From a virus (Duplodnaviria > Caudoviricetes), in the IMG/VR virus record IMGVR_UViG_3300016665_000375, positions 1 to 24,003 of that record: a stretch of 24,003 bases of DNA. One strand, written 5' to 3'. A program made the position numbers and the translations under genes. This document shows, piece by piece, positions 1 to 23,459 of the stretch. Every line of letters starts with the position of its first letter. Within the stretch, counting starts at the first letter, position 1. Under the pieces are notes generated by a model. That model was not told where the DNA came from, ran no database searches, and was given only the letters and a program-made list of their open reading frames with translations.

Positions 1-51
1 CGTATCTTTGGCCCTGACAACACGCTCTCTTATGTGGCGGTATTCCGGTAA
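1..51 (+). CDS. 3' end of upstream gene (partial), probably virion module
   Basis: Open frame RIFGPDNTLSYVAVFR ends in TAA (49-51), which overlaps the next ATG (TAATG coupling). Confidence 0.6.
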   Translation, partial: RIFGPDNTLSYVAVFR

Positions 52-2324: not shown

Positions 2325-2659
2325 AGCGAAAGTTCTATGTGTCTCAGATTGAAGATGAGTACATGAAGCAGAACATGAAGTCGCTCATGGACTTTTTCAA
2401 CACTACCCCGTTTCTTAAGGGGCAGTGGCGGTTTATTACATTTACGGTAAAGGCTTCTGTCACGGATCAAAAGCTTGAGCATAATTTAGCGTTTACCCCA
2501 GCGGATGTGATTGTAACTTCGGTAATCGGGGGTACAATTACATTTAAGTACGATCAGTTCGATAAGAACTTCTTAGTTTATAGCGCAACTGTGAGTACAT
2601 CGCCCATGACGGTTCGGGCCATCATCGGCACTTATACGGAGGATACAATCGGTGTATAG
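2321..2659 (+). CDS. Small virion-associated protein (hypothetical)
   Basis: 112 aa, ATGA-coupled to nozzle gene, beta-rich C-terminal half. Confidence 0.6.
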   Translation: MKRKFYVSQIEDEYMKQNMKSLMDFFNTTPFLKGQWRFITFTVKASVTDQKLEHNLAFTPADVIVTSVIGGTITFKYDQFDKNFLVYSATVSTSPMTVRAIIGTYTEDTIGV

Positions 2660-3350
2660 CCCTACTTATGCAGATCTGAAGAGTTATTTGGAGAAGGAAC
2701 TCGACCTTGAAGACGAGACATTCATCACAGCAGATGAGATGCGGTCGTACTTCAACGAAGCGGTCGATATGATCGAGGCATCCATCCACAATATCTACGA
2801 AGACTACTTTCTGACCAATGCTTCTCTTAGCATTGTGAACGGCCAGGCCGCATACAGCCTTCCTTCAGACATCTACGCACAGAAGATTCGGAAGGTTCTC
2901 TATAACGACGGCGGGGCGTACAAGTACGAGATCAAGCGGGTTAAAAAGCTCGAAGAGACCATGTTCATTCAGACCCCGGATCTCTACAGCTATGTGCTGA
3001 CTAACGACGCAACGGCGGGGCTTAAACTGACTCTTTTCCCTACCCCTGTCGCTGACCAGCCGTATGGGACGATCTGGTACATCCGTAATGCAAAAAGGTT
3101 TACTCAGGATACGGATGTTTGTGATATTCCTGAATTTACCAACGTGCTTGTTCAGTTTGTGCGGTGGAAGTGCCTCTCGAAAGAGGGGCATCCCGACGCT
3201 AACCAAGCAGGATCGGATCTGGAACGCATGAAGCAGGAGATGGTCGATACCCTGACTGCTCGGGTTCCAGATGAGGACAACTTTGTTTTGAAAGACATGA
3301 GCTTCTATCGTGATTATGACGATTGGAGATTTGGCGGAGGGCAATACTAA
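2652..3350 (+). CDS. Head-tail adaptor (tail tubular A-like)
   Basis: 232 aa, GTG start after GGAGG; pattern T..DL....YFNEA...G...YSLP.D...LFPTP...DIPE is typical of podovirus adaptors. Confidence 0.7.
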   Translation: MYSPTYADLKSYLEKELDLEDETFITADEMRSYFNEAVDMIEASIHNIYEDYFLTNASLSIVNGQAAYSLPSDIYAQKIRKVLYNDGGAYKYEIKRVKKLEETMFIQTPDLYSYVLTNDATAGLKLTLFPTPVADQPYGTIWYIRNAKRFTQDTDVCDIPEFTNVLVQFVRWKCLSKEGHPDANQAGSDLERMKQEMVDTLTARVPDEDNFVLKDMSFYRDYDDWRFGGGQY

Positions 3351-4021
3351 TGGCTGAGAACTATAAGAATCCTTACAATATGCAATCTAATATGATGGGG
3401 CAAAACCCAGGGTATACCCCAATGACACCGCAAGAACTGCAACTTCTTCAAGATCAGTTAAAGTATCAGCAGCAACAGATTGAACAAGAGCGGCAGAAAC
3501 AAGAGCTTGCAAAAACTGCAATGCCTGAGCTTACCTACAATCCTATTGTAGAAACCGAAGGCCCAGATGGTAAGAAGACTATCGGTCTTCGTGAAGAACT
3601 CCAGCTCCGTTCTCCTGAAGAATTTATTACTGCCGAAAAGGGCCGTATGGGGCTTGCTCAGACCCAGGCAGCGGATCAATTAAACCGCGCCCTAATGCAG
3701 CAGCAAGCACAACAACGCGCGGCTGCTATGGCTCGTGGTGGAGTTCGCGGTGGGACAGGAGCCCTTGATCGTTTCTCTATGCGGGAGGCAATGCTTGGGA
3801 AGCAGAGACTTGCAGGGCAAGGGCTTGAGCAACAAGCCGAGTTCGCGTCTAAAGCGGAACAACTTCGTTCTGAGGCCCGCGCAAAGCAGGTCGGTGCTCT
3901 GGGAGGAGCCCTTAAAGATGTAGAACAGTTTAATCTTGAACGGTGGAAAAAGATGAAAGATGTTGAAGCATCTAAAACTCAAGCAGAAGCCACCCGATCC
4001 GCAGGAAGCGGTGGTAAGTAA
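3350..4021 (+). CDS. Probable internal virion / ejection protein
   Basis: Start moved to ATG 3350 (TAATG overlap, GGAGG upstream); 223 aa, Q/A/G-rich, helical. Confidence 0.55.
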   Translation: MAENYKNPYNMQSNMMGQNPGYTPMTPQELQLLQDQLKYQQQQIEQERQKQELAKTAMPELTYNPIVETEGPDGKKTIGLREELQLRSPEEFITAEKGRMGLAQTQAADQLNRALMQQQAQQRAAAMARGGVRGGTGALDRFSMREAMLGKQRLAGQGLEQQAEFASKAEQLRSEARAKQVGALGGALKDVEQFNLERWKKMKDVEASKTQAEATRSAGSGGK

Positions 4022-4027
4022 GTAAGT

Positions 4028-4450
4028 ATGATCGAAATAGCTCAAATCTCAAAAGATCAGCTTGATGAGGCGTTTATTGAAAATCTCTACAAGAGCATTT
4101 TCGACTATGAACGCCCTGCTGACCACTTTCGGTTTGATTTGTGCATGGTCGCCAAGAATGAAAAAGGCGATTTAATGGGATTCTGCTTGGCTCGGGAGCT
4201 ATCTAAAACTGTGGTAGAGCTGGCCTGGGGTGGGACATCCAAAGAACATCGCGGTGCGTCTACATTGATTGGGTTAAAGAAGATTACCGATGTGTGCCTT
4301 GAGCACTATGAATCGGTGGTTTTTCATACTTGGAATAACAATATTAAAATGATTAAAGTTGGTTTAGCTCTAGGATATACTATCATTGGAACTAAGCTTA
4401 GTGATTTAAATGAGATAATGCTCATTTTTAATAAGAAAAGAGGAGGCTAA
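4028..4450 (+). CDS. GNAT-family acetyltransferase-like protein
   Basis: 140 aa; motif A-like GGTSKEHRG and C-terminal N..MIKV...LGY; located among ejection genes as in other podoviruses. Confidence 0.75.
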   Translation: MIEIAQISKDQLDEAFIENLYKSIFDYERPADHFRFDLCMVAKNEKGDLMGFCLARELSKTVVELAWGGTSKEHRGASTLIGLKKITDVCLEHYESVVFHTWNNNIKMIKVGLALGYTIIGTKLSDLNEIMLIFNKKRGG

Positions 4451-4451
4451 T

Positions 4452-4889
4452 ATGCCGATACCATTTGGAGCTTGGGTAGCACTTGCAGGATTAAACGCAG
4501 CAATGGCTGCTTCTAAAAAAGCGCAGCAAGACGCGGCAAGACAACGAGAAGCAAATTTAAGAGCGGCTGAGATCGAGGCTGCTCCTTGGACTGGCAGAGC
4601 GCCGACTACTCAAGTTAGTACCCCATCAAGCAACATCTGGGGAGAACTTGCAGGAGCAGGAGTAAACACTCTTGGACAAGGCATGGCTCTTCAACAATCA
4701 GGGTTATTTACTGAAGGAGCAGAGCTTCCAGGTGCTGAACTGCCCGGAGGATATGATGGGGGGGCTACTCTTACGCCTTCTGCTCAAGCCGCTATGGATA
4801 GAAGTGCTATTCAGGAAAATGTTAGCACTATGTGGCCTTGGGAAAGCAAACGAACTTCTTGGTTGAATACTTTAAAATCCTCAAGATAA
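4452..4889 (+). CDS. Small ejection protein (P22 gp7 / T7 gp14-like)
   Basis: 145 aa, hydrophobic Ala/Gly N-terminus then Q/A-rich helix; RBS AGGAGG. Confidence 0.55.
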   Translation: MPIPFGAWVALAGLNAAMAASKKAQQDAARQREANLRAAEIEAAPWTGRAPTTQVSTPSSNIWGELAGAGVNTLGQGMALQQSGLFTEGAELPGAELPGGYDGGATLTPSAQAAMDRSAIQENVSTMWPWESKRTSWLNTLKSSR

Positions 4890-4902
4890 TTAAGGATATA
4901 TT

Positions 4903-5859
4903 ATGGATAGTCCAGTACAGCCCCAAATTACAGCAGCAGCTATCCAGCCGGATATGACTGAAGAAGAAATGAAGAAACAACTTCTTGCACTTCTAGGGCA
5001 GTCTTTCGGGCAGCAAACTCAACAAATTGAAGCCCTTCAGAAACAGGCTGAAGCAGAGAAAAAGCGACAAGAAGAAATGGGAGTTTTGGGACGACTTGAC
5101 CTACGTCCATTTGCCCAAGCCGCTAAAGGATATGGAGCTACTAACGTAGCTATTCCAGAAGAAGCTCCAGTAGATAGAACAGCTATTCTCAGCAAACTTC
5201 AAAACGCTGTATCAGAAGCTCAACAAGGGCTTACTAAAGAACAGGTAAATGCACTTAAAGGGATGCTTGAAGATAAGCGGTCTGCCCAAGCTGGAATTTC
5301 TCAGAAAAACCAAGAAATCAGGATGTTTAATTACGCCCAGGGTAAATACTTAAAACCTGCCGAAGATTACTTGAAAGGATCAGGACAATACAATTTTGTG
5401 CGTAATGAACTTGCTACTGGTCAGCCTTCAAGAATTAATAGGGCATTATCTCAGTACGCTCGTATTATGGGCCAAACAGGGGTTCTCACGGATAATGATA
5501 TTCGCTTGCAACTCCCTCCTACATTTGTATCTGCGTTAGATAGGGCATATACATATGTAACAGGAAATCCAGAAGCAGAGCTTCCACAAGAGATTGTCAC
5601 AGATCTTCTAAGTACTCTTGATTCGGGGCAAGTTGCAACTCAACAAGCCTACAAGAATAAATTAGATCTTACCCATCAGAGCTTTTTGCAAGGGCCTTAT
5701 GCAGGTATGCCAGCATTAGATAATTTGTATGCACAATCCTCTAAAACAATTCTTGGCAATGCAAAACCAGCAAAAGGCGGCGCTCCTGGGGGATTGCCTC
5801 CAGCCGCAGATATTGAAGCAGAAGCTAAGAGAAGAGCTGCCGCAAAGAAAGGTAAATAA
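4903..5859 (+). CDS. Probable ejection protein
   Basis: 318 aa, Q/A/E-rich coiled-coil character; position in module. Confidence 0.55.
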   Translation: MDSPVQPQITAAAIQPDMTEEEMKKQLLALLGQSFGQQTQQIEALQKQAEAEKKRQEEMGVLGRLDLRPFAQAAKGYGATNVAIPEEAPVDRTAILSKLQNAVSEAQQGLTKEQVNALKGMLEDKRSAQAGISQKNQEIRMFNYAQGKYLKPAEDYLKGSGQYNFVRNELATGQPSRINRALSQYARIMGQTGVLTDNDIRLQLPPTFVSALDRAYTYVTGNPEAELPQEIVTDLLSTLDSGQVATQQAYKNKLDLTHQSFLQGPYAGMPALDNLYAQSSKTILGNAKPAKGGAPGGLPPAADIEAEAKRRAAAKKGK

Positions 5860-5861
5860 AC

Positions 5862-7319
5862 ATGGATCTTTCTAAACTGAGCGACAAAGATTTTGAAGCA
5901 TTACAAGCAGGTAAACTTCAAGATATGTCCGATGAAGGATTTGCATATCTTCAATCTCAAAGCGCCGCAGAACCCAGTATACCTGTCAGTAAAAAAGAAC
6001 CAGGAATACTTGAAAAAGCGACTCGGGGGCTTAACCTCGCTGGAGGAGCAGTTCGCGGAGCGATTGCGGGGGCAGTAGAACCTCTTATTGGTAAGGATAT
6101 TGTATCTGCCGAAGAAGTAAAATCTGGAACTGTACCAGGCGCTTCTGAACTTATGGCACGAGCAGGAATTCCAGAAGGATTCTCTTTATCCGATATTGTC
6201 CCTTCTATGTATTCTCAAGATGGTGAAGGACTTGCTCTTGAAAAAGGTGGGATGTTTGATCCTACGGCTCGGGGGACTGCTGGCCTTGCCGCAGATATTC
6301 TTACAGATCCTCTAACTTATCTTGCAGCTCCTTTAAAAGCAGCTCAGGTGGCTCGTGCGGGCACAGCGGCAGGGAAAGCCCTTAAGCTTGGTGAAGTATT
6401 GATCAATCCTATCGGAGAAGCCGTAGGAGCTGCGGGAGCGGGGCTTAAAAAGGGCGGAGAGAAATTCTATAAATCTGCGTTTGAAAAAGCAGATCAAGCT
6501 CTAGCTACTCGATATGGAAAAGGATCTATTGCAGATATTCTTAAATCTCGTGGGTTTAAAGGATCGGCTGAACAAGCCCTAGAGAAGACCTCCGAAATTA
6601 ATCAAGAACTTGGTAAAAAGATCGGTACATTTAGAGAAGCTGCGGATCTTACAGGTATTCTTGAAAAACCATTAAACTTTGAGGCCGCAGAAAAAGTAGT
6701 GCAGAAATACAGGGTATCTTCTGATCCTGAGATGATGGGTATAGCGGACAATCTTCAAGAAATTCTTGATAGCTATAAGGGAATGCCCCCTAAAACTGCT
6801 ACCGAACTTGCTACCGTTAAGAGAACTAATCTCGACATGGCAGGAGGCGATACCGCATTTGATATGCTTAAATCTTCTCCAGATCGCGCTAAAGCAGAGC
6901 TTCGTAGGGCAATAGGTAAAAGCCTTGGTGAAGCGGAGGATTCAGCGGTTAAACAAGCACTTCCTCCTGAGCAATATAAAGAATATCTAAAGACTAAGCG
7001 TGATTATGGAGTGACGACTAAATTTGCTCAAAAAGAACTGAATAAACTTGCTCGCGCTGAAATGACTCGTACTGGAGTTGCTCCTAGTGCAGTAGATATT
7101 ATGGGAATGGGAGTAGCTGCTGCTGCTGGAAGCCCTATAGGAATGGGTGCAATGGCAGCTAAAAAAGCTAGGGATATTATGCGTCTTACTGGGACTAAAA
7201 CCCGTCTTGGGCCTATGATGGAATCTGTAGGAGGAGGCATCGAAGCAACAGCCGCTAAGATCCCCCCACAAGTATGGCTTGAAATGTTGAGATCTAAACC
7301 AGAAGGAGAACAGAAATGA
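5862..7319 (+). CDS. Probable large ejection (DNA transfer) protein
   Basis: 485 aa; N-terminal MDLSKLSD.D..AL, Gly/Ala-rich amphipathic stretches and a DILTDPLTYL segment, as in podovirus internal proteins. Confidence 0.6.
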   Translation: MDLSKLSDKDFEALQAGKLQDMSDEGFAYLQSQSAAEPSIPVSKKEPGILEKATRGLNLAGGAVRGAIAGAVEPLIGKDIVSAEEVKSGTVPGASELMARAGIPEGFSLSDIVPSMYSQDGEGLALEKGGMFDPTARGTAGLAADILTDPLTYLAAPLKAAQVARAGTAAGKALKLGEVLINPIGEAVGAAGAGLKKGGEKFYKSAFEKADQALATRYGKGSIADILKSRGFKGSAEQALEKTSEINQELGKKIGTFREAADLTGILEKPLNFEAAEKVVQKYRVSSDPEMMGIADNLQEILDSYKGMPPKTATELATVKRTNLDMAGGDTAFDMLKSSPDRAKAELRRAIGKSLGEAEDSAVKQALPPEQYKEYLKTKRDYGVTTKFAQKELNKLARAEMTRTGVAPSAVDIMGMGVAAAAGSPIGMGAMAAKKARDIMRLTGTKTRLGPMMESVGGGIEATAAKIPPQVWLEMLRSKPEGEQK

Positions 7320-7639
7320 AAATGAACAAAGAAGATATGGCTAAGATGGAGAATGAACCAGGCGAAGGCATGATGCACGAAAAAGCAGAAGGCCCAGCTT
7401 ACGAGAAAAAAGAAGATGTAATGGAAGGCGAAGACTCTGGCGAAGAAGATATGGGCGAAGAGTCCGACTGGCAAGCTAACTGCGACGCTAACGACCTCCT
7501 CCGCGCTGCTGAGATCAAGGCTGACCCTATGCGTATGAAAGCTGCCCTTGAGATTCTGGGGCAGAAGAAAAAAGCCATCGACTCTATGGAAGAGCTGATG
7601 GCTGTTCGTAAAGATAAGATGATGGAGAAGAAAGGGTAA
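7316..7639 (+). CDS. Hypothetical protein, acidic Met/Glu-rich N-terminus
   Basis: 107 aa, ATGA-coupled, AGGAG RBS. Confidence 0.7.
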   Translation: MKMNKEDMAKMENEPGEGMMHEKAEGPAYEKKEDVMEGEDSGEEDMGEESDWQANCDANDLLRAAEIKADPMRMKAALEILGQKKKAIDSMEELMAVRKDKMMEKKG

Positions 7640-7644
7640 GCATC

Positions 7645-8235
7645 ATGGCTGATGACATCTTCACAGTTCAAAGAAAGCCTTTAAGCTGGCAGGAAATGAC
7701 TCGTCAGGCAATGGCAGAGGAAGCTCGTAAGCAAACTCCTATGGGCTGGGAAGTCCCTGTCGATCAGCTTTATGCTCCGTCTTCTGATGTACCTGTTTCT
7801 GGGGGATTCGCCCCAGGGGGAGCAGAGTATGATCCTACTCCTGAAATGATTGCCTCGATGGTTCCTTGGGGAGCCATGACTAAGGGAGCAATAGCAGAAC
7901 TTAAAGCGCTAGGAGAACTGGGAGCGATTGGAAGGGATATTAGTCTTAAAACTCCAGAAAGAGCTAAAGAATTAGTTAATATTAATCTGCCAAAAGGTAT
8001 GCACCGAATAGGTGGAGAATCTATTCCTGCAAGAGAACTTCAACTTCCAAATATTCGACCAGAACTTAAATCGGCTAAAGTACTAAAACAGCGTCCTGAA
8101 GCAAAAGAATTATTAGGCACTTCTATCGGACAAGGAGAATCTGTACGAGAGGGAGATATTGCCAACGCTATTGAAGCAGCGATTCGGGCAATCCGTTATG
8201 AAAGAAGACTGCCCAAACCGAAACTGCCTAAGTAA
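7645..8235 (+). CDS. Hypothetical protein, last gene of the + arm
   Basis: 196 aa ORF whose stop abuts the stop of the convergent gene. Confidence 0.65.
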   Translation: MADDIFTVQRKPLSWQEMTRQAMAEEARKQTPMGWEVPVDQLYAPSSDVPVSGGFAPGGAEYDPTPEMIASMVPWGAMTKGAIAELKALGELGAIGRDISLKTPERAKELVNINLPKGMHRIGGESIPARELQLPNIRPELKSAKVLKQRPEAKELLGTSIGQGESVREGDIANAIEAAIRAIRYERRLPKPKLPK

Positions 8236-10760: not shown

Positions 10761-11473
10761 GGCCCCTTATAGTCCTTCAGAATTATAGTCGGAAAGTCGA
10801 ACGTCAGTTTTTCGTAGTCGCACTGCTTAAGCAGCTTCACCCACCATTTATTATTCCCATCCCATAGGAATCGGTGGGCTTTAGCCTTCTCTCTGTTGTC
10901 ATAGCTAACATTAGCCCTGACCCAAATTTGAGGTGACTTGGCCCGTTCCATTATGACCTCAATCGGAAACCGAAAAAGTAAAAGTGCCATTAAATCAACA
11001 TCATGCCGAGCACTATGGGCCGAAGGATTAACTATCCCGAACTCTGCTCCGAGATAGGTGAGCTTTCTCGTCTCGATGTGCTCGGGCCAGGGTACGTCAA
11101 AGCGGGTATCTACAAGAAGCGGAAGCTCTGGGAGATCCATTCCGAGACGGGCTACCTCGTTCTTCAGTAGAGGCAGATCGTAATTATGAAAGTTATGAGC
11201 CGCGACAAAATCCACGTTAGCACTGTGCTCAAACAGATTAGCAATAGCCGTAGTAAGCGGCGCTCCGAATTTCTCAAGTTGTTCTTTAGAGATCCCCGTG
11301 ATCTGAGCTGCTACGGGGTCGATCTCATACTCCCCCTCTGGTAGTATGAGTGAGCTGTAGTGATAAAGCTCTTTTTTTTCTTCAATATCCCAAACTGAAA
11401 ATGCGACCTGAGTAATGCGGGCCGTTTGGACATCTTTATCGGTTGCTTCAAAGTCTAAAAATAAGCCTCGCAT
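10757..11473 (-). CDS. DEDDh (DnaQ-like) 3'-5' exonuclease with C-terminal DUF5710-like domain
   Basis: Start set to ATG 11473 after AGGGGG; LDFEAT, HN..NYD, HSARHD; C-terminal NVSYDNREKAKAHRFLWD...KWW. Confidence 0.9.
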   Translation of the reverse strand: MRGLFLDFEATDKDVQTARITQVAFSVWDIEEKKELYHYSSLILPEGEYEIDPVAAQITGISKEQLEKFGAPLTTAIANLFEHSANVDFVAAHNFHNYDLPLLKNEVARLGMDLPELPLLVDTRFDVPWPEHIETRKLTYLGAEFGIVNPSAHSARHDVDLMALLLFRFPIEVIMERAKSPQIWVRANVSYDNREKAKAHRFLWDGNNKWWVKLLKQCDYEKLTFDFPTIILKDYKGP

Positions 11474-12744: not shown

Positions 12745-12773
12745 TTAGTCCTCCTTACTTTTTGATTATCATA

Positions 12774-14195: not shown

Positions 14196-14638
14196 TTCGC
14201 GAACTCCTTATGCATTTTTTTAGCGGCTTTTACATAGGCTTCATGAGCTTCTTTTGCTGTTTTAAAAGTGCCTAAATAAATATGCTTTTTATACGCAGCA
14301 ATTTGAGCAATCCATTTTCCTGGAGTTGGACTTTTAGTCACACCTTTATAGCCACTAGTATTATTAGATTGTTTAGGCCTATTAAACTTATTGGTAAAAT
14401 GGTTACACTTACGCAAGTTCTTTTTTCTATTGTCTAGCCCGTTTCCATTTTTATGATCAATATATTTTTCATTTAAAATAAAACAATGCATATAAACGCA
14501 AGTGACTTTGTTTTTGTGCTGGGATTTACGATAAGCATACCCAAGTGGATTGTATGTCCACTTCCATTGAGTAAGATATTCAAAATCTTCATCATCCACT
14601 AAAGCAAATTTACCCTGAGTTAATGGTATTTTTTTCAT
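14189..14638 (-). CDS. HNH endonuclease with C-terminal AP2 domain
   Basis: ALVDDED, IDHKNGNGLDNRKKNLR, SGYKGV, W.AQI, YLGTF...EA..AY; visibly more AT-rich than neighbours. Confidence 0.92.
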   Translation of the reverse strand: MKKIPLTQGKFALVDDEDFEYLTQWKWTYNPLGYAYRKSQHKNKVTCVYMHCFILNEKYIDHKNGNGLDNRKKNLRKCNHFTNKFNRPKQSNNTSGYKGVTKSPTPGKWIAQIAAYKKHIYLGTFKTAKEAHEAYVKAAKKMHKEFAKW

Positions 14639-14647
14639 TAGTCCTCC

Positions 14648-14737
14648 TCATCCAAAAAGTACAACAAGTAGATAAAACGGCAAAAACATCCCCGTCAACA
14701 CTAGCAATAGTTCGACAACAATAATCAGCTTTTTCAT
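14648..14737 (-). CDS. 29-aa hydrophobic peptide
   Basis: MKKLIIVVELLLVLTGMFLPFYLLVVLFG, preceded by GGGGGGACTA; not in ORF track. Confidence 0.6.
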   Translation of the reverse strand: MKKLIIVVELLLVLTGMFLPFYLLVVLFG

Positions 14738-14755
14738 TAGTCCCCCCTGTCAGAT

Positions 14756-14878: not shown

Positions 14879-14893
14879 ATAGTCCTCTCAATA

Positions 14894-14967
14894 CCACTCC
14901 CCCAGGAATCGAACCTGGCTCTCGCACGATCTCTATTCGTGCCACTCTGCCACTGAGTTAGGGAGCT
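14894..14967 (-). tRNA. Atypical tRNA-like element (nominal anticodon AGA)
   Basis: AGCTCCC-TA-ACTC-AGTGGCA-GAGT-G-GCACGA-ATAGAGA-TCGTGC-GAGAG-CCAGG-TTCGATT-CCTGG-GGGAGTG-G; canonical D and T arms, 6-bp anticodon stem, 1:72 mismatch, no encoded CCA. Confidence 0.75.
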
Positions 14968-15818: not shown

Positions 15819-16006
15819 AGTTCGTCTCCTAGTACTTCAGTAATTAGTTCTGGCCCATATCCCATTTCGATCAGTTTCTGCCTGATCTGTGCGTACGCCG
15901 GGGCCTTAGCGTAACAGCACTTTCCGCTGATCTTCAACTGCTCTTTGAGCAAGTGTCGAAGCTCGTCGTTCTCTTCTCGAAGTCTATCTATCTCTTGTAT
16001 CGACAT
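15815..16006 (-). CDS. Hypothetical protein
   Basis: 63 aa, AAGGAGG RBS, ATGA coupling. Confidence 0.75.
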   Translation of the reverse strand: MSIQEIDRLREENDELRHLLKEQLKISGKCCYAKAPAYAQIRQKLIEMGYGPELITEVLGDEL

Positions 16007-16024
16007 TAGTCCTCCTTTAGTTAG

Positions 16025-16073
16025 CCCCCCTAACCGTCAGCCAATGATTAGGGGGGTTGGTGAGATATTCACC
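16025..16073 (-). other. Intergenic tandem hairpins
   Basis: Minus strand GGTGA-ATATC-TCACC, then CCCCCCTAATC...GGTTAGGGGGG, just 5' of an RBS. Confidence 0.55.
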
Positions 16074-16090
16074 GTTAGGGATAAAGCGCC

Positions 16091-16249
16091 CTAATCTTCG
16101 TAGTCTTCGTAATCGTCATAATCCCCGTCATTCTGCTCATCCCAGAAGCTCTGCACATTTGAGCTTTTGCACTTGGGACAAGCCAGCATATAGCCATTAT
16201 TGAACGCAGTGTGCCCGCAGTCATAGCAGAAGTGTTCCATGCAAGCCAT
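16091..16249 (-). CDS. 52-aa zinc-ribbon protein with acidic tail
   Basis: MACMEHFCYDCGHTAFNNGYMLACPKCKSSNVQSFWDEQNDGDYDDYEDYED; TGATG coupled; not in ORF track. Confidence 0.8.
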   Translation of the reverse strand: MACMEHFCYDCGHTAFNNGYMLACPKCKSSNVQSFWDEQNDGDYDDYEDYED

Positions 16250-16497
16250 CACTCCCCACCTTTCAACGCTTCACGGGCAATTTCTACGGCTTTCTCCGAG
16301 TCGTGCCTAACACCATAGCTTGTTACCCAAGGTTGACACGCTTTTAACATATCTGCCGTGAACTCCAACGCCTCCCGATAACGGGCGTTTTCGGCTCGGA
16401 GGGTTTCGATCTCCTTCTGCAATTCAGTAGTCCGTTCGCTCAGAGATTTTTCCCAAGCTTTCTTATAGTAGTCTGCGTACTCCATAAAATCGCTCAT
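16249..16497 (-). CDS. Hypothetical coiled-coil protein
   Basis: 82 aa, LRAENARYREAL...AREAL phage-type pattern. Confidence 0.75.
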   Translation of the reverse strand: MSDFMEYADYYKKAWEKSLSERTTELQKEIETLRAENARYREALEFTADMLKACQPWVTSYGVRHDSEKAVEIAREALKGGE

Positions 16498-16562
16498 TTC
16501 TTCCCACCCCCGCAGGTACAGATGAAAACGAGGCAGCCAAAGTCATGTGTTGTTTCTGTCAT
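16494..16562 (-). CDS. 22-aa Cys/His minigene
   Basis: MTETTHDFGCLVFICTCGGGKK; AAGGAGG RBS; stop overlaps next start (ATGA). Confidence 0.55.
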   Translation of the reverse strand: MTETTHDFGCLVFICTCGGGKK

Positions 16563-16583
16563 AAGTCCTCCTTTACGGAGAAG

Positions 16584-16889
16584 TTATGCGTCGTATTTGG
16601 TAAAGTCAAAATCTTTTTTTGACTTTGGTTTCTTTTTCTTCTTTTTCTCTTCTTCAGGCCACTGCATATCGACCACAAGCTGAATGCCCTCGTCGTCAAC
16701 TACATAGACAAACTCGTCAGTCAGTGCCTCGTCCTCGACGAACTCCACCGTCCGCTTAATCGGAATGTCCCCAAAAGACCTGAGCTCTGATACGAACTTC
16801 TTCCGACTCTTTAAGAGAAGCTTAATACACCTCGGACTACTGACAATGTACGTCGTGTCCTTGTCGTCATACGGCCATTCCTGAATCAT
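16584..16889 (-). CDS. Hypothetical protein with poly-Lys tail
   Basis: 101 aa, ATGA coupled. Confidence 0.7.
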   Translation of the reverse strand: MIQEWPYDDKDTTYIVSSPRCIKLLLKSRKKFVSELRSFGDIPIKRTVEFVEDEALTDEFVYVVDDEGIQLVVDMQWPEEEKKKKKKPKSKKDFDFTKYDA

Positions 16890-17179
16890 CGCTTCCCCCA
16901 GTAGTTGTGAAATAAAATGTAAAAGAGCGCATCTTCCAACTGATATATGGCCCGGTGGCTTATGTCGATCCCCCGCTCCTCACACACAGCATGAAGTATT
17001 TCATGAATGACGCTTTTTATCTCCTGCTTTTCACTCTGACCCTTCTTTAGCGCAATCTGCCGCACATCAAAGCGGCACTCGCCTAGCGTATCAGGCACTG
17101 AGAAATCCTCCACCCATACCACCTCGTACACCGTCTTGTTCTTGACTTTAATACGCGGTGGGATCTTGGGCAGCTTCAT
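16886..17179 (-). CDS. Small HExxH metallopeptidase-like protein
   Basis: Start set to ATG 17179 (ATGA overlap); LGEC....QI.L and IHEILHA motifs. Confidence 0.75.
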   Translation of the reverse strand: MKLPKIPPRIKVKNKTVYEVVWVEDFSVPDTLGECRFDVRQIALKKGQSEKQEIKSVIHEILHAVCEERGIDISHRAIYQLEDALFYILFHNYWGKR

Positions 17180-17415
17180 TTCTTCACAGACTTCTTCGCT
17201 ACACAGTTCCATTTGGCGCGGCTAAGCCGCAGCGGACTGTTCGGATCTTTCGCCGCCTTCGGGTGCTTTAACATCTGCCCCCAAGATCTAGCGCAATAAG
17301 AGTCTCCACGGCTAGTTCCTGGAGCAATCGAATACCCCTTCGCCCCATATCTGACTGTACGCTCCCGCCCCGTATCTGGATCGGTAATAGTCTTGCTAAA
17401 CTTCTTCTCGGCCAT
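17176..17415 (-). CDS. Basic phage protein, DUF6321-like
   Basis: R..SYCARS.G......AKDPNS....SR..WNC motif. Confidence 0.7.
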   Translation of the reverse strand: MAEKKFSKTITDPDTGRERTVRYGAKGYSIAPGTSRGDSYCARSWGQMLKHPKAAKDPNSPLRLSRAKWNCVAKKSVKK

Positions 17416-17423
17416 CGCTCCCC

Positions 17424-17543
17424 CTAACTAATGAGCAGTCTGATCAGCAGGATCTCTCCTAGCTTCATCGCAGCTCCAAAGATCATCCCGCAAACAATCA
17501 ACTCAACCTTGCCTATCTCAATCTTCACCTTCTGTGCTTCCAT
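17424..17543 (-). CDS. 39-aa hydrophobic peptide
   Basis: MEAQKVKIEIGKVELIVCGMIFGAAMKLGEILLIRLLIS; G-rich RBS; not in ORF track. Confidence 0.55.
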   Translation of the reverse strand: MEAQKVKIEIGKVELIVCGMIFGAAMKLGEILLIRLLIS

Positions 17544-17590
17544 AGGTTCCCCCCCTACTACAAGTCTAAAGGCTCGGTGGTTTTTGCCCA

Positions 17591-17761
17591 CTACTTTTTC
17601 TTCTTAGTCTGCTCCAACACTTCCATAAAGCCAAGCAAACACAGCATCTCCAAGTGCGCTTCGATGCGAGACTGCATATAGAAGTCCGCCTTCAGGTTCT
17701 CCCGCTCTGCGTCAATACTTTCCAACTTCTCCATGTACGCCTTGATTCTCTCTTCAATCAC
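17591..17761 (-). CDS. 56-aa hypothetical protein
   Basis: GTG start after GGAGG; MIEERIKAYMEKLESIDAERENLK...; not in ORF track. Confidence 0.6.
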   Translation of the reverse strand: MIEERIKAYMEKLESIDAERENLKADFYMQSRIEAHLEMLCLLGFMEVLEQTKKKK

Positions 17762-17957
17762 AGCTTGCCAACCTCCATATTTTTACACTATACCCGCCCT
17801 CAATCTCTTCCCTTACCGGACTAATCGAAGTGCAGTACCCCTCTGTAGGCCAATCCCTCAAATACCGCGCCGCAGCTTGCTCCACCGCTTCACGAGTCAC
17901 CCCTGTTATATACGCTGTTACCGATGATCCACTAGCCATCTCTTTGAATTCCGTCAT
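17754..17957 (-). CDS. Hypothetical protein, possibly leaderless
   Basis: 67 aa from ATG 17957; no SD; ATG lies 6 nt after a -10-like TACCTT. Confidence 0.65.
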   Translation of the reverse strand: MTEFKEMASGSSVTAYITGVTREAVEQAAARYLRDWPTEGYCTSISPVREEIEGGYSVKIWRLASCD

Positions 17958-17963
17958 AGTCAA

Positions 17964-17991
17964 AAGGTACGCTAGTTCTGCGAGACTTCAA
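17964..17991 (-). promoter_or_regulatory. sigma70-like promoter for the leftward middle operon
   Basis: TTGAAG-16 nt-TACCTT directly after the sRNA terminator. Confidence 0.4.
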
Positions 17992-17992
17992 G

Positions 17993-18067
17993 AAAAAACG
18001 GAGAGGAAGATCCCTCTTCCCCTCCGCCTGACGTTCAGAGGACTAATTCTGAAGCAGCGAACGCTGC
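17993..18067 (-). ncRNA. Candidate ~75-nt anti-RBS small RNA
   Basis: Three hairpins: GCAGC-GUUC-GCUGC; UUCAGA-AUUAGUCC-UCUGAA; 12-bp terminator CGGAGGGGAAGA-GGGA-UCUUCCUCUCCG then U6. Promoter immediately upstream. Confidence 0.7.
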
Positions 18068-18073
18068 ACCTCC

Positions 18074-18102
18074 AATGTAAAAATTTAATTGCCTTTGCAC
18101 AA
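18074..18102 (-). promoter_or_regulatory. sigma70-like promoter of the small RNA
   Basis: TTGTGC-17 nt-TACATT; +1 falls at about G18067, the first base of hairpin 1. Confidence 0.6.
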
Positions 18103-18118
18103 CTGTTTTCTGTACGCT
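18089..18118 (+). promoter_or_regulatory. Possible sigma70-like promoter for primase-helicase
   Basis: TTGCCT-18 nt-TACGCT, overlapping the divergent promoter. Confidence 0.4.
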
Positions 18119-18156
18119 GAGAAAGAATTACATCGGACGGAGAGGACTAACACCAC

Positions 18157-20469
18157 ATGACACTCAAAAACTATATCGTACCTTCACTCAATTCGCCTTT
18201 GTCTAAAGGCCATATCCAGGCATCCGACCTGCTGTCAAAGATTCAAAACTACAGCGGCTCGGAGGGTTACTACTGCCTATTTGACCTCGAACCCCGCGAC
18301 TCCTTCCAAGGCTACCGAGGCTTCCACACCCCGGCCCTTGGCTACTACGTCCTCGACTTCGACCACTCCGAAGACGTAGCCCTTGCTCGCACCGACTGCC
18401 TCGCCACCATCGCGGCTCTGGGGCTTGAACAGAACACCTACAAAGTCTATTTCTCCGGCTCCAAGGGCTTCCACCTCTACATCCGCCAAGAGTTCTTCGC
18501 GCTCACCCCAAGCGAGACCACCGCAAAAGACTTCGAGCGCCTCATCGTACAATTCGCCGCCACCAACAACATCTCCACCCTGGACGACTCGATCTATTCG
18601 GCCAACCACAAGTTCCGCCTCCCCAACTCAAAACACCCAAAAACAGGCCTCTACAAAGTAGAACTGACCCGCGAGCAAGTAGAAACCCTCTCCATCGATG
18701 AGATTAAAAACTTAGCCAAGTCACCATGTGGGGTGAGTCTGTCCGAGTACGTTACTCCGAGCACAAGGTATGCTCGGGGTAGCGTCTCGGTTAACCCTTC
18801 AGGCTCGGTGGGTTTGAGCCTCGCCTCCTACGGCCTGGACCTTACCCCCGAACCAAACACCTTCGCCACCTTCAAAGGAAAGCCCTGCATCCAGTCAATG
18901 GAAACAGGCAAGCACAAAGAAGGGATGCGCCATGAAGTAGCCCTCACTCTTATCTCCGAGTACTTCCACCGAGGCGAGGCCCAAGACACCACCGAGGCGA
19001 TGATTCGGGGGTTCTGCGAAACCAACCAAATCATGGACCGCTTCGAGCGTGACTACCTCCGAGCCATCCGAGACGCTTACTCCGGCAAAGCCGCCTACTC
19101 CTACGGATGCTACTCCAAGATCAAACAAAAGTTTTGCTCCGGGACCTGTAAGCTGTATACTAGCCTCAACCCAAGCAAGCGAGCTCAAGTCCTAGATGCT
19201 CCAACAAGTTTACCGTCCGCACCACACACAACCTCCCCCGAGCCAACCATGACGGACGGCTCGGGGGGTTCTCCAATCTTCCCAGATACCGCAAAGAAGG
19301 GGCCTCTCGCCACCATCGGAAACATCAAAGCCCTGCTCGATTTCTACAACATCCAGGTCGGCTACAACCTCATCAAAAAAGACATCGAAATACGCATCCC
19401 CGAGCTAGAACTACTAAAAGACAACGCAAAGTCCAACGCCCTGATCCACATAGTCTCGCTTGCCAATAGCCACCGACTCCCAAGAGGCGGTGTCGAAGAA
19501 TTCGTCGAATACTTAGCCTCCGATAATCCCTTCAATCCTGCGGTTCGGTGGATTACAAGCCAGCCCTGGGACGGAGTCAGTCGGCTTGGAGCGTTCTACA
19601 ACACCATCACCGGAGCAAAAGACTCTGTTAAGGAGAGTAAGCAGCTCAAAGAGACGCTCATGCGGAAGTGGATGCTCTCCGCTGTAGCCGCTGCATTCAG
19701 TCCTAACGGCTCGGCGGGTTCAGGCATTCTAGTTCTGCAGGGCGCTCAATACATGGGAAAGACTAAGTGGTTCAAAGAACTCGTCCCAGCCGAACTTGAA
19801 ATCACCAAAGACGGCATGATGCTTGACCCAAAAGATAAGGATAGCGTCTATCAGTGCGTGACCAACTGGCTCGTCGAACTAGGTGAAGTAGATGCCACCT
19901 TCAGGAAGGCAGACATAGCCCACCTAAAAGCCTTCCTCACCAAGGATACGGACGTTCTGAGGCTTGCCTATAGCCGTAAAACCTCCGAGTTCGCCCGTAG
20001 AACCGTTTTCTTTGCGTCTGTGAACCAGGAGGACTACCTCTCTGACCCCACCGGAAACAGGCGTTTCTGGACGATTGAGTGTAGCGCCATCAACCATACC
20101 CACGGGCTCCCCATGCAACAGGTTTGGGCCGAAGTCTATGAGCTGTGGAAGAGCGGAGAAAGCCACTACCTGACCACCGAAGAGATGGTAGCCCTCAACA
20201 AACACAACGAAAACTATCAGGTTAAGGATGCGTTTGAAGAACTGTTCCTTGAGCGGTTCGATCTTGAGAGTTCAAACACTGTGTTCATGCCTACAGGGGA
20301 GATCCTCAAGCACTTGGGGATCAACTCCCCAACCTCAAGGGACTTCTCAAGACTTAAAGCAGTGCTTAAGAATCTGAACATCCCAGTCCACAAGCGGGTG
20401 GGCGTGAGAGGGTATTTCGTTTGTGCCGTTCTAAATCCTAAAGACCGATTCGAAGAAGCGCAGTTCTAA
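18157..20469 (+). CDS. AEP primase - Cys-rich domain - VapE/VirE-type helicase fusion
   Basis: AEP motifs VLDFD, FSGSKGFH, D.SIY....FRLPNS.H; Cys domain PCI...YGC...FCSGTC; VapE motifs GAQYMGKT, WLVELGE, D.LR.AY, DPTGNRRFW. Confidence 0.9.
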   Translation: MTLKNYIVPSLNSPLSKGHIQASDLLSKIQNYSGSEGYYCLFDLEPRDSFQGYRGFHTPALGYYVLDFDHSEDVALARTDCLATIAALGLEQNTYKVYFSGSKGFHLYIRQEFFALTPSETTAKDFERLIVQFAATNNISTLDDSIYSANHKFRLPNSKHPKTGLYKVELTREQVETLSIDEIKNLAKSPCGVSLSEYVTPSTRYARGSVSVNPSGSVGLSLASYGLDLTPEPNTFATFKGKPCIQSMETGKHKEGMRHEVALTLISEYFHRGEAQDTTEAMIRGFCETNQIMDRFERDYLRAIRDAYSGKAAYSYGCYSKIKQKFCSGTCKLYTSLNPSKRAQVLDAPTSLPSAPHTTSPEPTMTDGSGGSPIFPDTAKKGPLATIGNIKALLDFYNIQVGYNLIKKDIEIRIPELELLKDNAKSNALIHIVSLANSHRLPRGGVEEFVEYLASDNPFNPAVRWITSQPWDGVSRLGAFYNTITGAKDSVKESKQLKETLMRKWMLSAVAAAFSPNGSAGSGILVLQGAQYMGKTKWFKELVPAELEITKDGMMLDPKDKDSVYQCVTNWLVELGEVDATFRKADIAHLKAFLTKDTDVLRLAYSRKTSEFARRTVFFASVNQEDYLSDPTGNRRFWTIECSAINHTHGLPMQQVWAEVYELWKSGESHYLTTEEMVALNKHNENYQVKDAFEELFLERFDLESSNTVFMPTGEILKHLGINSPTSRDFSRLKAVLKNLNIPVHKRVGVRGYFVCAVLNPKDRFEEAQF

Positions 20470-20500
20470 TAGCGCGTATCCTTTGTGCGTAGGAGTGTGG

Positions 20501-20544
20501 AGCCCCTGGATCACCTGAGCGGTGGTTCGGGGGTTTTTCGTTTT
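20501..20544 (+). terminator. Intrinsic terminator after primase-helicase
   Basis: AGCCCCTGGATCAC...GTGGTTCGGGGGTT followed by TTTCGTTTT. Confidence 0.75.
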
Positions 20545-20553
20545 GAGGCTGAG

Positions 20554-20863
20554 TTGGGGCCGCTGGGGCCGCTTGGGGCACTGAAATTTTGACTACTCGG
20601 CCCCAAGAAAACCTAATGCTTACACCCCCTTATACTACTTGGGGCCGTTGGGGCACTATATATATATAACATTATGAATTATATATAGAGGGGGGTATAG
20701 ACCGCACCCTAGAGGGGGGCACACGCAATTCTGGGAAGTTCGGGAAAAGTGCTGCCCCAAGTGCCCCAAGTGCCCCAAAATGAGTTAAGTTATTGTTTGT
20801 ACAATTAAATTCTTGGGGCCGAGCAGTGCCCCAAGTGCCCCAGTTGGGGCCGTATAGTCAAAA
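20554..20863. repeat. Putative replication origin: iteron array around an AT-rich core
   Basis: 13 copies of TGGGGC/GCCCCA (7 forward, 6 reverse), clustered at 9-10 bp period, around a (TA)n core at 20656-20688. Confidence 0.75.
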
Positions 20864-20867
20864 CTAT

Positions 20868-21272
20868 TTACAACCTAAGTACTTTAATCAAGGCTTCCTC
20901 AAGAGAAGTTGAAGAAGGGCGCGGGAGTTCCGGTGGGCGCGGGGAGTCCGACTCAAGAGGGATCTCTGGTGCGGGAATGATCGGAATAGGAGCTTCCTCT
21001 ATAGACGCATCCTTTGCGCGCGGGAGCTTCCCCAGGAGAGACCCTAGGTCTAGGACTGTCTTGTCCCGGCCCTTCCTAGCCTCAATGTGGAGCTCGTATC
21101 CAAGCGCGGTGAGGATGTCCGCTAATCGCCGAACCGTTGGCGTAACCTCTCCCCGCTCAATGTTAGAGATCGGCCCTTGATAGGCTCCCCCGCCTCGAAT
21201 GCCTGAGAGGATCTCGGCAAGGGCTATCTGACTAATACCTGACTCTTTTCTAAGGTCTCGTAGTGTTTTCAT
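20868..21272 (-). CDS. XRE-family HTH regulator with Pro-rich C-tail
   Basis: LRDLRKESGISQIALA...ISNIERGEVTPTV..L..I..ALG; second ATG (21272) fits the AAGGA RBS. Confidence 0.9.
   Translation of the reverse strand: MKTLRDLRKESGISQIALAEILSGIRGGGAYQGPISNIERGEVTPTVRRLADILTALGYELHIEARKGRDKTVLDLGSLLGKLPRAKDASIEEAPIPIIPAPEIPLESDSPRPPELPRPSSTSLEEALIKVLRL
21007..21020. promoter_or_regulatory. Repeated dyad motif GCATCCTTTGCGCG (copy inside the XRE gene)
   Basis: Identical to copies at 21275 and 22649. Confidence 0.55.
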
Positions 21273-21274
21273 GT

Positions 21275-21288
21275 GCATCCTTTGCGCG
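21275..21288. promoter_or_regulatory. Repeated dyad motif GCATCCTTTGCGCG over the XRE gene RBS
   Basis: Exact 14-bp repeat. Confidence 0.6.
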
Positions 21289-21292
21289 TGGG

Positions 21293-21616
21293 TTATTCGA
21301 GCCAGAAGCGATTAGCCTTGGCCATGTCCCAAGCGGTGTTCCACAGTTCAGAGTCGGCTTCGTGCTTGGCCAGTAGTTCTGGCGTTTCGTTCCCCTCGTC
21401 ATCGCATGAATGAGTGAAGCCTCTACCTAGAACGACATGGAAAGCCTCGTCCATTGCCATGTTAGAATCGCAGTGGTTCCCAGTAGCACAGCACCCCTCG
21501 TAGGTAGTGCCCTTGTAGGACTCATTGAGCGCGATTACTTCGCGCATAGTGGACTCTCCGAGCCACTCGTAAACGATTCTTGAAAACACCCGCGCCAGTT
21601 GTTCTGTCGTGTTCAT
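21293..21616 (-). CDS. Hypothetical early-type protein
   Basis: 107 aa, CCAT..HCDSNMAM segment; ATGA coupled, GAGAGG RBS. Confidence 0.75.
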   Translation of the reverse strand: MNTTEQLARVFSRIVYEWLGESTMREVIALNESYKGTTYEGCCATGNHCDSNMAMDEAFHVVLGRGFTHSCDDEGNETPELLAKHEADSELWNTAWDMAKANRFWLE

Positions 21617-21903
21617 GCTAACCTCTCTTTGAAAAACTCAATAACCTCGTCGACTGATAGCCCATCAATCGAGTCTTCTGGGCAGTTGAAATTGGAAATA
21701 AGCCATTTTTCAGGATTCAGGACTGACGACTCATCGCCGAAAATGACATTCTCCGCATCGCCCGAAGGATAGACTGCGAAGTCTTCAACTTTAGGATGCC
21801 CCATGCTACCTAGAGCGTCATTTTTCCATGAGTAGTCCACTAGCCCGAACTCCAAAAACTTCTCTGGTATCCTTGTCTTGACTGGATGATTTAAATATTT
21901 CAT
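21613..21903 (-). CDS. Hypothetical early-type protein
   Basis: 96 aa, ATGA coupled, AAGGA RBS. Confidence 0.75.
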   Translation of the reverse strand: MKYLNHPVKTRIPEKFLEFGLVDYSWKNDALGSMGHPKVEDFAVYPSGDAENVIFGDESSVLNPEKWLISNFNCPEDSIDGLSVDEVIEFFKERLA

Positions 21904-22088
21904 GACTGTTTTTCCTTTATTTCGGCGTTAATATACTCAATTAAAATTTTTTCGAGTTTATAATACTCATTTCCTGAAAAATAAACTGAGGCAAAATCTC
22001 CATGCTTCACGCCGATTTCATCCTGAATAAATTTTAAAGCGATGTTGATTGCATCTTCAGTTATTGATTCGATTTGTTTTTTATTCAT
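21900..22088 (-). CDS. Hypothetical early-type protein
   Basis: Start set to ATG 22088 after AAGAGG; 62 aa; AT-rich. Confidence 0.7.
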   Translation of the reverse strand: MNKKQIESITEDAINIALKFIQDEIGVKHGDFASVYFSGNEYYKLEKILIEYINAEIKEKQS

Positions 22089-22089
22089 A

Positions 22090-22302
22090 TTATCCTCTTT
22101 TTGCTTCATGTATTTCTGCAATGCACTGCTTGCAGTTTACTTTTTCATTGTCGAAGGAGCGTTTCGCCCCTCCGTAGATTCTCCTCACCCGCCCATCGAC
22201 TGTTATGTTCATGCCATTATCACCGCACAGTGAAACCGATCCGGAGAATGGTTTTTTGACTGCCTTATGTATAGTTCCTGAGTCATCCTTTAGCTGTTCC
22301 AT
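22090..22302 (-). CDS. Hypothetical protein, possible Zn-binding (H, C, CxxC)
   Basis: 70 aa, IH...LCG...VNCKQC; AGGTG RBS. Confidence 0.65.
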   Translation of the reverse strand: MEQLKDDSGTIHKAVKKPFSGSVSLCGDNGMNITVDGRVRRIYGGAKRSFDNEKVNCKQCIAEIHEAKRG

Positions 22303-22324
22303 GTGTTCACCTATCCTTTCCGCG

Positions 22325-22612
22325 TTAGTCTTTTTTTACTTCAACTTGAATCCCGTCGATAAAAGCGAAAAGCAAGCTTTGCAATTCCCTTTTCGACACA
22401 TACCCGCATCGCAAAACGTCATGTGTTCCCGTGCCTTCATCGCACATTTGGTGTAGTGTTACTCCACCATAGGCAAAACTTAGATGATAATTCCCAGCTT
22501 GAGGTTCAAGCTTGCCTTCAGCATTTCGCACATAGGCCATTTCGGGATTTCCCGTCATTCGATTGATGCGTGTTACAATATTTTCCAAATCTTTTTCAGT
22601 TACTCTTTTCAT
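22325..22612 (-). CDS. Hypothetical early-type protein
   Basis: 95 aa, R.T.K.L...V.RIN...G.YHLS.AYGG..L pattern. Confidence 0.8.
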   Translation of the reverse strand: MKRVTEKDLENIVTRINRMTGNPEMAYVRNAEGKLEPQAGNYHLSFAYGGVTLHQMCDEGTGTHDVLRCGYVSKRELQSLLFAFIDGIQVEVKKD

Positions 22613-22648
22613 AGTATATTCTCTTTCTTTGTTTGGTTGTTTCCTCGC

Positions 22649-22662
22649 GCATCCTTTGCGCG
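22649..22662. promoter_or_regulatory. Repeated dyad motif GCATCCTTTGCGCG (intergenic copy)
   Basis: Extends here to the perfect dyad CGCGCA-TCCTT-TGCGCG. Confidence 0.6.
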
Positions 22663-22674
22663 TAGGGAATTGTT

Positions 22675-22733
22675 CCAGGGCGCAGGTCTCCCTGCCCAGG
22701 GAGACTTCCGTCTCACTAGGCTTTGCGTTCTGG
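22675..22733 (-). ncRNA. Unclassified structured intergenic RNA
   Basis: CCAG/CUGG closing stem, GCCUAG/CUGGGC stem, GAGAC-GGAA-GUCUC and AGG-GAGA-CCU GNRA hairpins. Confidence 0.5.
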
Positions 22734-22746
22734 TTTTAAATCTAGG

Positions 22747-23004
22747 TTATTTGAACATTACTTCCAGTTCATTAAACACCGTTAGAGCTGAGTCTAAGTC
22801 TGGATAATCTTTTTCTGTCCACTCTACTCTCGTTTCTGGCAGTAGGTTCACCGTTCTAATCTGATAAACATACTGACCATGTCCGAAGGCTATCGACCAC
22901 AGTTCATGATACCTAGTCGAACTCTCTTCTACTGTATCGATGATCCTAAATGTATGTTGAGCAAGTGGGCGATGTGTTCCAATTCCTGCATAATATCTGT
23001 TCAT
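22747..23004 (-). CDS. Hypothetical early-type protein
   Basis: 85 aa, GGAGAGG RBS. Confidence 0.7.
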   Translation of the reverse strand: MNRYYAGIGTHRPLAQHTFRIIDTVEESSTRYHELWSIAFGHGQYVYQIRTVNLLPETRVEWTEKDYPDLDSALTVFNELEVMFK

Positions 23005-23030
23005 GTAGTCCTCTCCATTCTGATTAGATT

Positions 23031-23084
23031 AGCCTCATCAGTCTCCGCATTACGGAGAGACACTCCTTTCGGAGTGTTTCGGCC
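23031..23084 (-). ncRNA. Type II hammerhead ribozyme
   Basis: GGCC-GAAA-CACUCC(GAAA)GGAGUG-UC-UCUCCG(UAAUG)CGGAGA-CUGAUGA-GGCU: intact core and three helices. Confidence 0.92.
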
Positions 23085-23405: not shown

Positions 23406-23459
23406 TTTAGTCCTCTTTCTGTATCTCGTTTCGGCTTCATTGCCTCACACCTTTAGTAA

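Follow-up and report, generated by a model that had tools for sequence, protein, structure and literature searches.

Genome organization and probable host

The stretch of DNA analyzed here (the window) is a complete virus record of 24,003 bases. Virion genes occupy 51-8235 on the + strand. A replication module (DNA polymerase A, exonuclease, gp33- and gp34-like genes, SNF2 helicase, and HNH) runs leftward, and the gene for a 770-aa primase-helicase runs rightward. A further group of small leftward genes, one of them an HTH gene, is termed the early region here because of its position. There were no close cultured relatives of the phage; the best matches were at 24-35% for the primase and ~33% for the helicase. 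Bdellovibrionales is the probable host order, because a contig with a 92% identical primase was binned with Bdellovibrionales and two distant relatives were in other Bdellovibrionales bins. Two other relatives sit in unrelated bins, and binning can mislead. Hfq was absent from three incomplete Bdellovibrionales bins and present in a fourth bin.

Several other features of the window were noted. Behind the primase gene (20550-20850), direct and inverted GGGGCAC/GCCCCA repeats flank an AT-rich stretch in an origin-like arrangement. The first leftward gene has a -10-like box ~6 nt before its ATG (17957-17992, - strand) and no Shine-Dalgarno sequence, an arrangement with similar counterparts in relatives L097 and L015. 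If leaderless, this first leftward mRNA would escape the small RNA described below. A repeated motif, CGCGCAAAGGAT(G/A)C, is present on the - strand near 22662, 22324, 21288, 21020 and 20489, often as a small hairpin displaying AAGGA in its loop; there are five copies in the window, eight in G001, three in G002, nine in G004 and three in L002. It resembles CsrA-type sites or a processing signal.

A predicted small RNA gene divergent from the primase gene

The region between the primase gene and the first leftward gene contains the following features:

18157..20469, + strand: primase (AEP-like N-terminus) fused to a VapE-like helicase, 770 aa (Pfam and PHROGs)
18089..18118, + strand: likely primase promoter, TTGCCT-18-TACGCT, read from the sequence, with similar boxes in L015, L016 and L007
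18097..18102, - strand: -35 box (TTGTGC) of the small RNA promoter, the top-ranked promoter, within TTGTGCAA, which is invariant in 7/7 aligned members
18074..18079, - strand: -10 box (TACATT) of the small RNA promoter; TACTTT or TATCTT in relatives, weaker in L007 and L017
17993..18067, - strand: predicted 75-nt small RNA, +1 at the first base of P1
18054..18067, - strand: P1, the 5' hairpin, with an invariant GCGUUCGC core; 2/5 pairs changed on both sides
18034..18053, - strand: P2 hairpin; 3/5 pairs changed on both sides
17993..18029, - strand: intrinsic terminator and U-tract (18029-17996 in the terminator scan), of differing sequence in each relative

The first-pass annotation of this DNA had proposed a minus-strand promoter here with a start at about 18067. 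Our own promoter scan ranked the same site first and placed the +1 at 18067. The promoter is sigma-70-like, with a spacer of 17 nt, and lies back to back with the likely primase promoter. A strict consensus scan did not list it because it has just 8 of 12 consensus matches.

The predicted transcript folds on the minus strand as P1, P2 and the terminator at -37.4 kcal/mol (z -4.32; none of 200 shuffles folded as well), in agreement with the hairpins described earlier. The + strand also folds, at -31.6 kcal/mol. The loop of P2, AUUAGUCC (18047-18040), has an unpaired probability of 1.0 and, together with part of the 3' arm of P2, makes up the predicted seed, AUUAGUCCUCU (18047-18037). The P1 core presumably serves stability or protein binding. 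As had been noted, there is no ORF on the RNA: none of at least 40 aa was found on that strand, and stops occur in every frame of the unit in all six members checked. On the + strand, a 96-aa ORF overlaps the unit. There was no match at the element among 4227 Rfam families up to an E-value of 5. In one low-depth relative contig, there is an extra paired change in P1 (18056/18065) and a loop one base shorter, which may be an error.

Gene starts that carry a tag complementary to the loop

The motif GAGGACTA occurs nine times in the window, compared with a chance mean of 0.78, a number reached in none of 100 shuffles. Seven of the nine copies have an ATG no more than 11 nt away; the other two are the element itself and a site within the primase gene. 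The full form of this tag in the window is (A/G)GAGGACTA(A). The following sites are candidate targets, identified by seed match and duplex energy:

18141..18150, + strand: tag at the primase-helicase RBS; 10-nt match, -14.7 kcal/mol
23407..23416, - strand: tag, first early-region gene (103 aa); 10-nt match
23006..23014, - strand: tag, 85-aa early-region gene, right behind a hammerhead ribozyme
16005..16014, - strand: tag, 63-aa gene; 10-nt match
14880..14888, - strand: tag, 40-aa gene
14736..14746, - strand: tag with G.U pairs, 29-aa hydrophobic ORF (start 14737); duplex energy
14637..14646, - strand: tag, HNH-AP2 endonuclease (Pfam and PHROGs); 10-nt match
12745..12753, - strand: tag, DUF7307 (Pam3 gp33-like) replication-module gene
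10770..10776, - strand: weak 7-nt match 5' of DNA polymerase A, -9.8 kcal/mol, within the coding end of the exonuclease gene; a doubtful target

Nine gene starts had been described as complementary to the loop, with 10-nt matches at 18141, 14637, 16005 and 23407. We found all four of these matches at those positions. Eight of the nine starts can form 9-11 contiguous pairs with the seed, G.U pairs included, at -13.9 to -16.2 kcal/mol; the ninth, DNA polymerase, is weak. These approximately eight candidate targets lie in three transcription units. Among 38 starts called with our own simple gene caller, eight matched the 5' domain of the small RNA over at least 8 nt (shuffle mean 0.34; 0 of 2000 shuffles), seven of them through the tag and one through a different 8-mer. 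None of the 10 structural starts in the window carries the tag, compared with 8 of the 28 other starts (p = 0.08).

The possibility that the tag is a host-wide RBS was ruled out. In bin G017 (2.4 Mb) the tag was followed by an ATG three times, all on one contig, the phage's, and in four other bins at most three times; because there are so few of these matches, the tag is not the RBS of the host. The consensus for CsrA contains ANGGA, which is absent from the tag, and a CsrA site was dropped as a candidate. Ranking targets by whole-duplex energy was unspecific: the primase start came 8th of 38 in the window and 26th of 66 in relative G005, and was not first in most genomes.

Two kinds of RNA element were seen next to tagged starts. 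A type II hammerhead ribozyme (23024-23084, - strand) lies ~50 nt before a tagged RBS in the window; it matches Rfam RF02276 at 32.4 bits, under the gathering score of 37. Two more hammerheads, with different stems, precede tagged starts in G001 (near 36411 and 37004). Self-cleavage may free early mRNAs that are then controlled by the small RNA. In addition, a tRNA called as Ser with anticodon AGA, which lacks a long variable arm, stands directly before a tagged RBS (14894-14967, - strand) and has a counterpart at 946-1022 of L171; relatives have a tRNA-Asn in the same module.

Conservation and co-variation in close relatives

Seven close members keep the unit at the same place (the window, L171, L097, L015, L016, L017 and L007). 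All 70 of the 70 stem cells in these members pair, compared with 22-51% in slid controls, and five of the ten base pairs change on both sides. TTGTGCAA, GCGUUCGC and the loop core, UAGUCCUC, are invariant, the last being found in 7/7 members. The terminators differ in sequence, and all have a hairpin and a U-tract. In six of the seven close members the +1 from the script was the 5'-most base of P1; the start points of L017 and of the more distant L175 were set by hand. A covariance model found just its seven training members as significant among 54 sources, along with two weak matches (E-values of 0.26 and 0.8). A less strict pattern scan picked up 119 loci, and filters on stems and tag counts left four known members as the only full units.

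The excess of tags at gene starts was significant in G001 (7 of 65 starts; 22 of 2000 shuffles), G002 (9 of 54; 0 shuffles) and G004 (8 of 36; 2 shuffles). It was not significant in G003 (2 of 45 starts; 173 shuffles), which is without its early region. As in the window, the tag in G001 was confined to non-structural starts (0 of 29 structural starts compared with 7 of 36 others; p = 0.014).

Two changes in the seed are mirrored in the tags, which bears on the earlier proposal to test whether the loop and the RBS motif co-vary in related phages. In G004, whose loop is AAUAGUCC (a U to A change), the tag is followed by T at 6 of 8 sites, compared with A at 21 of 27 sites elsewhere. In G002 and G003, which have a U to A change in the 3' arm of P2, the tag is preceded by A at 2 of 11 sites, compared with 19 of 24 others. 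The Fisher p-values were 0.0007 for the G004 change (C sites left out) and 0.002 for the G002/G003 change, but both are overstated because G002 and G003 are near-copies, five of the G004 sites have near-identical leaders, and an ATG supplies 10 of the 21 A's. Without bases derived from an ATG, the G004 comparison was A at 11 of 17 compared with T at 5 of 7. We count the co-variation as two events, both in the predicted direction.

Units of unrelated sequence in distant relatives

We compared 22 loci with a primase match that includes the start of the protein. There was a divergent promoter, a short non-coding stretch and a terminator in 14 of the 22, occupying three places on the primase tree, and no such unit in the other eight (L068, L078, L099, L176, L179, L273, L274 and L276). 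In six of these eight, the gene preceding the primase runs in the same direction, and in the other two no terminator was found. No unit was found further upstream in G007, G012, G013, L099, L179 or L176. L018 (upstream DNA missing) and L069 and L177 (copies of L070) were excluded. Seven more distant loci had no unit and were left out of the counts, and three further relatives, found through the helicase, did not have the primase start region.

The seven distant units have a similar layout and a sequence unrelated to that in the window. Six of them match their own primase start perfectly, over 10, 8, 9, 9, 10 and 11 nt. The seventh (L175) pairs imperfectly with its primase start, yet this was the best energy of its row. 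When units and primase starts from seven groups chosen by eye were permuted, none of the 5040 arrangements scored above the one that pairs each unit with its own primase (off-diagonal mean 4.9).

A blind search for 9-mers common to gene starts recovered the tag in the window, G001, G002 and G004. In G009, the same search gave GGGAAGAAA among the top motifs. It precedes four starts, including that of a 682-aa gene in the position of DNA polymerase, and the sole other copy is within the unit. The 5' region of the G009 unit, taken alone, folds no better than shuffles (z -0.39). In G005, G006 and G010, the primase start was the only one with a match of at least 8 nt. G008 had three matches, and a multi-target excess was not significant in G003, G005, G006, G008 or G010. 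Relatives without a unit that were scanned (G007 and G011-G014) had no start motif in common. Four starts in G005 match the L103 RNA over at least 9 nt, though the unit of G005 itself matches just its primase start.

On these comparisons, the primase start looks like the ancestral target. Control seems to have expanded to a regulon at least twice, once in this clade and separately in G009.

Proposed function and alternative explanations

The most likely explanation of these data, at a probability of roughly 70%, is that the unit encodes a phage small RNA of 75 bases whose loop is complementary to the RBS tag of eight early and replication genes and would block their translation. Compensatory changes in the stems, the invariant loop core, and co-variation of seed and tag in near and distant relatives support the reading of the first-pass annotation, a multi-target anti-RBS RNA made from the minus strand. 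Transcription would start at a host-type promoter that adjoins the primase promoter and points the opposite way, and the RNA would accumulate with time and genome copy number. Its loop would make first contact with the ACUAA portion of the tag, between the Shine-Dalgarno sequence and the start codon and immediately 3' of the former. Pairing would then open the 3' arm of P2 and cover the GAGG/AGGA core, and the 30S subunit would be shut out, repressing translation of the tagged gene.

Three other explanations seem improbable, to increasing degrees. The small RNA could be real and control the adjacent primase alone, with the other tags being good RBSs copied along with early-gene leaders and under no regulation of consequence. 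The primase-only matches in G005, G006 and G010 fit this idea, as do the visibly repeated early leaders in G001 and G004. However, tags also precede unrelated replication-module genes (helicase, gp33-like, HNH and the methylase region), the match at these genes is often better than at the primase itself, and G009 repeats a second tag with another sequence. We regard control of the primase alone as the least improbable of the three.

A protein, either a translational repressor or a DNA-binding factor, might instead bind the tag, with the copy in the hairpin acting as a + strand decoy or operator. A motif in a single orientation at gene starts does look like a protein site, the + strand folds too (-31.6 kcal/mol), and the phage encodes an HTH protein. 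A decoy on the + strand had already been judged less fitting, and we came to the same view: the promoter and the U-tract are oriented for the minus strand, which is also the better-folding strand in 12 of the 14 units. The motif is wholly different between groups yet still complementary to the unit, and departures from the tag in the window are A to G changes opposite U, although the strength of the Shine-Dalgarno sequence favors G there too. A protein site is a distinctly unlikely reading. We give still less weight to the idea that the unit is a leader or attenuator of the leftward operon, or a single-stranded DNA hairpin for the primase, with an incidental RBS match. The unit is directly upstream of the leftward operon and adjoins the primase gene, and compensatory pairs suit DNA hairpins equally well. 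However, neither version explains the co-variation of loop and tag. It is also disfavored by another -10-like box, ~6 nt ahead of the next ATG, and by the position of the origin-like repeats at the opposite end of the primase gene.

Of the roles suggested earlier for a multi-target small RNA, the early-to-late switch, taken here as early shut-off or feedback on replication, fits best. Dormancy and immunity found no support; there was no tyrosine integrase (the only type sought) in any of the five records searched, three of them >90% complete. We lean toward feedback on replication or early shut-off, because the small RNA would build up while structural genes carry no tag. A carrier state or a superinfection block comes second, as a less likely but reasonable reading, and some other role is less likely still.

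Comparison with known antisense RNAs and with SAS motifs

Antisense RNAs that set plasmid copy number, such as CopA and ColE2 RNAI, are constitutive brakes, initiated through loops, on translation of a replication initiator. They are cis-encoded, with long perfect complementarity to a single target, whereas the unit would pair over 9-11 nt in trans with many targets. The replication genes of satellite phage P4 that are held down by CI RNA include its primase, and the unit would likewise be a small phage RNA holding down replication genes, among them the primase-helicase. CI RNA is described as processed from the transcript that it controls, acting by premature termination through seqA and seqC (PMC4825925). 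In contrast, the matches of the unit are RBS tags on other transcripts, and flanking sites of the P4 CI type were not seen: there is no GAGGACTA on the minus strand from 16014 to 23006.

The c4 antisense RNA of P1 and P7 pairs through its loops near the RBS of ant, blocks translation, and controls an antirepressor from an operon (c4-icd-ant) shared with its target (PMC12197685, PMC8198154). The loop of the unit similarly displays sequence complementary to phage RBS regions. Unlike c4, the unit has its own predicted promoter and terminator, approximately eight candidate targets, and a position divergent from the primase gene. The Rfam covariance model for c4 gave no match at the element, and no antirepressor was found among the window proteins scanned (28 and 30 in two profile searches). 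The unit would work like c4 and belongs to neither c4 nor P4 CI.

Trans-encoded bacterial small RNAs have their own promoter and terminator and a short conserved seed for several RBS targets (PMC12197685). The unit resembles these in having a predicted promoter and intrinsic terminator, no ORF, and a conserved accessible seed that co-varies with its targets in events that are not independent. It differs in being encoded by a phage against the phage's own genes, in its near-identical target sites, and in having the seed in a hairpin loop. In the literature searched, which covered subscription papers thinly and included parts of PMC12197685, we found no phage RNA that targets many of the phage's own genes through an RBS tag.

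In layout, the unit has a parallel in the SAS motifs of cluster K mycobacteriophages (PMC3203893, PMC11373665, PMC12699233). According to Pope et al. (2011), SAS is an asymmetric motif of 13 bp found at 11-19 non-structural gene starts and is absent from the host; four K1 phages have one reversed copy, and an RNA or protein partner was suggested (PMC3203893). In 2024, the role of SAS was still called unknown (PMC11373665). The tag is also asymmetric, located at the RBSs of non-structural genes, absent from the host, and present in one odd copy, but (A/G)GAGGACTA(A) differs from the 13-bp SAS consensus and belongs to another phage group and host. In the right arm of Adephagia, there are 16 forward SAS copies and a reversed one in the gap between genes 92 and 93, which presents the anti-SAS stretch in a hairpin loop (z -3.61). 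The loop (L462, 29650-29710) belongs to the rightward strand and follows a further strong hairpin. Late transcription is reported as apparently starting between genes 92 and 93. The right arms of Pixie and TM4 gave no reversed copy. The layout of the unit parallels that of SAS, an analogy drawn with one phage, Adephagia, and not a proof.

Implications

We tentatively suggest, at a little under even odds, that this phage has an RNA-only regulon in which one small RNA is the master repressor and genes join by acquiring an RBS tag. Such a regulon would have grown from an RNA that controlled the primase and would have widened at least twice, with different tags. SAS may share this logic, with the reversed copy between genes 92 and 93 of Adephagia specifying a late-made RNA that shuts off early genes; the function of SAS thereby becomes directly testable in a cultured phage. 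In the portions of the literature covered, phage antisense RNAs aimed at phage genes elsewhere have one or two targets. A small RNA that controls many genes through a common RBS tag would, if real, do with RNA what a repressor does with its operators. It also provides a search rule for any phage genome: a motif at many gene starts, with one non-start copy in a promoter-hairpin-terminator unit. A repressor of 75 nt whose loop can be exchanged would also make a useful tool.
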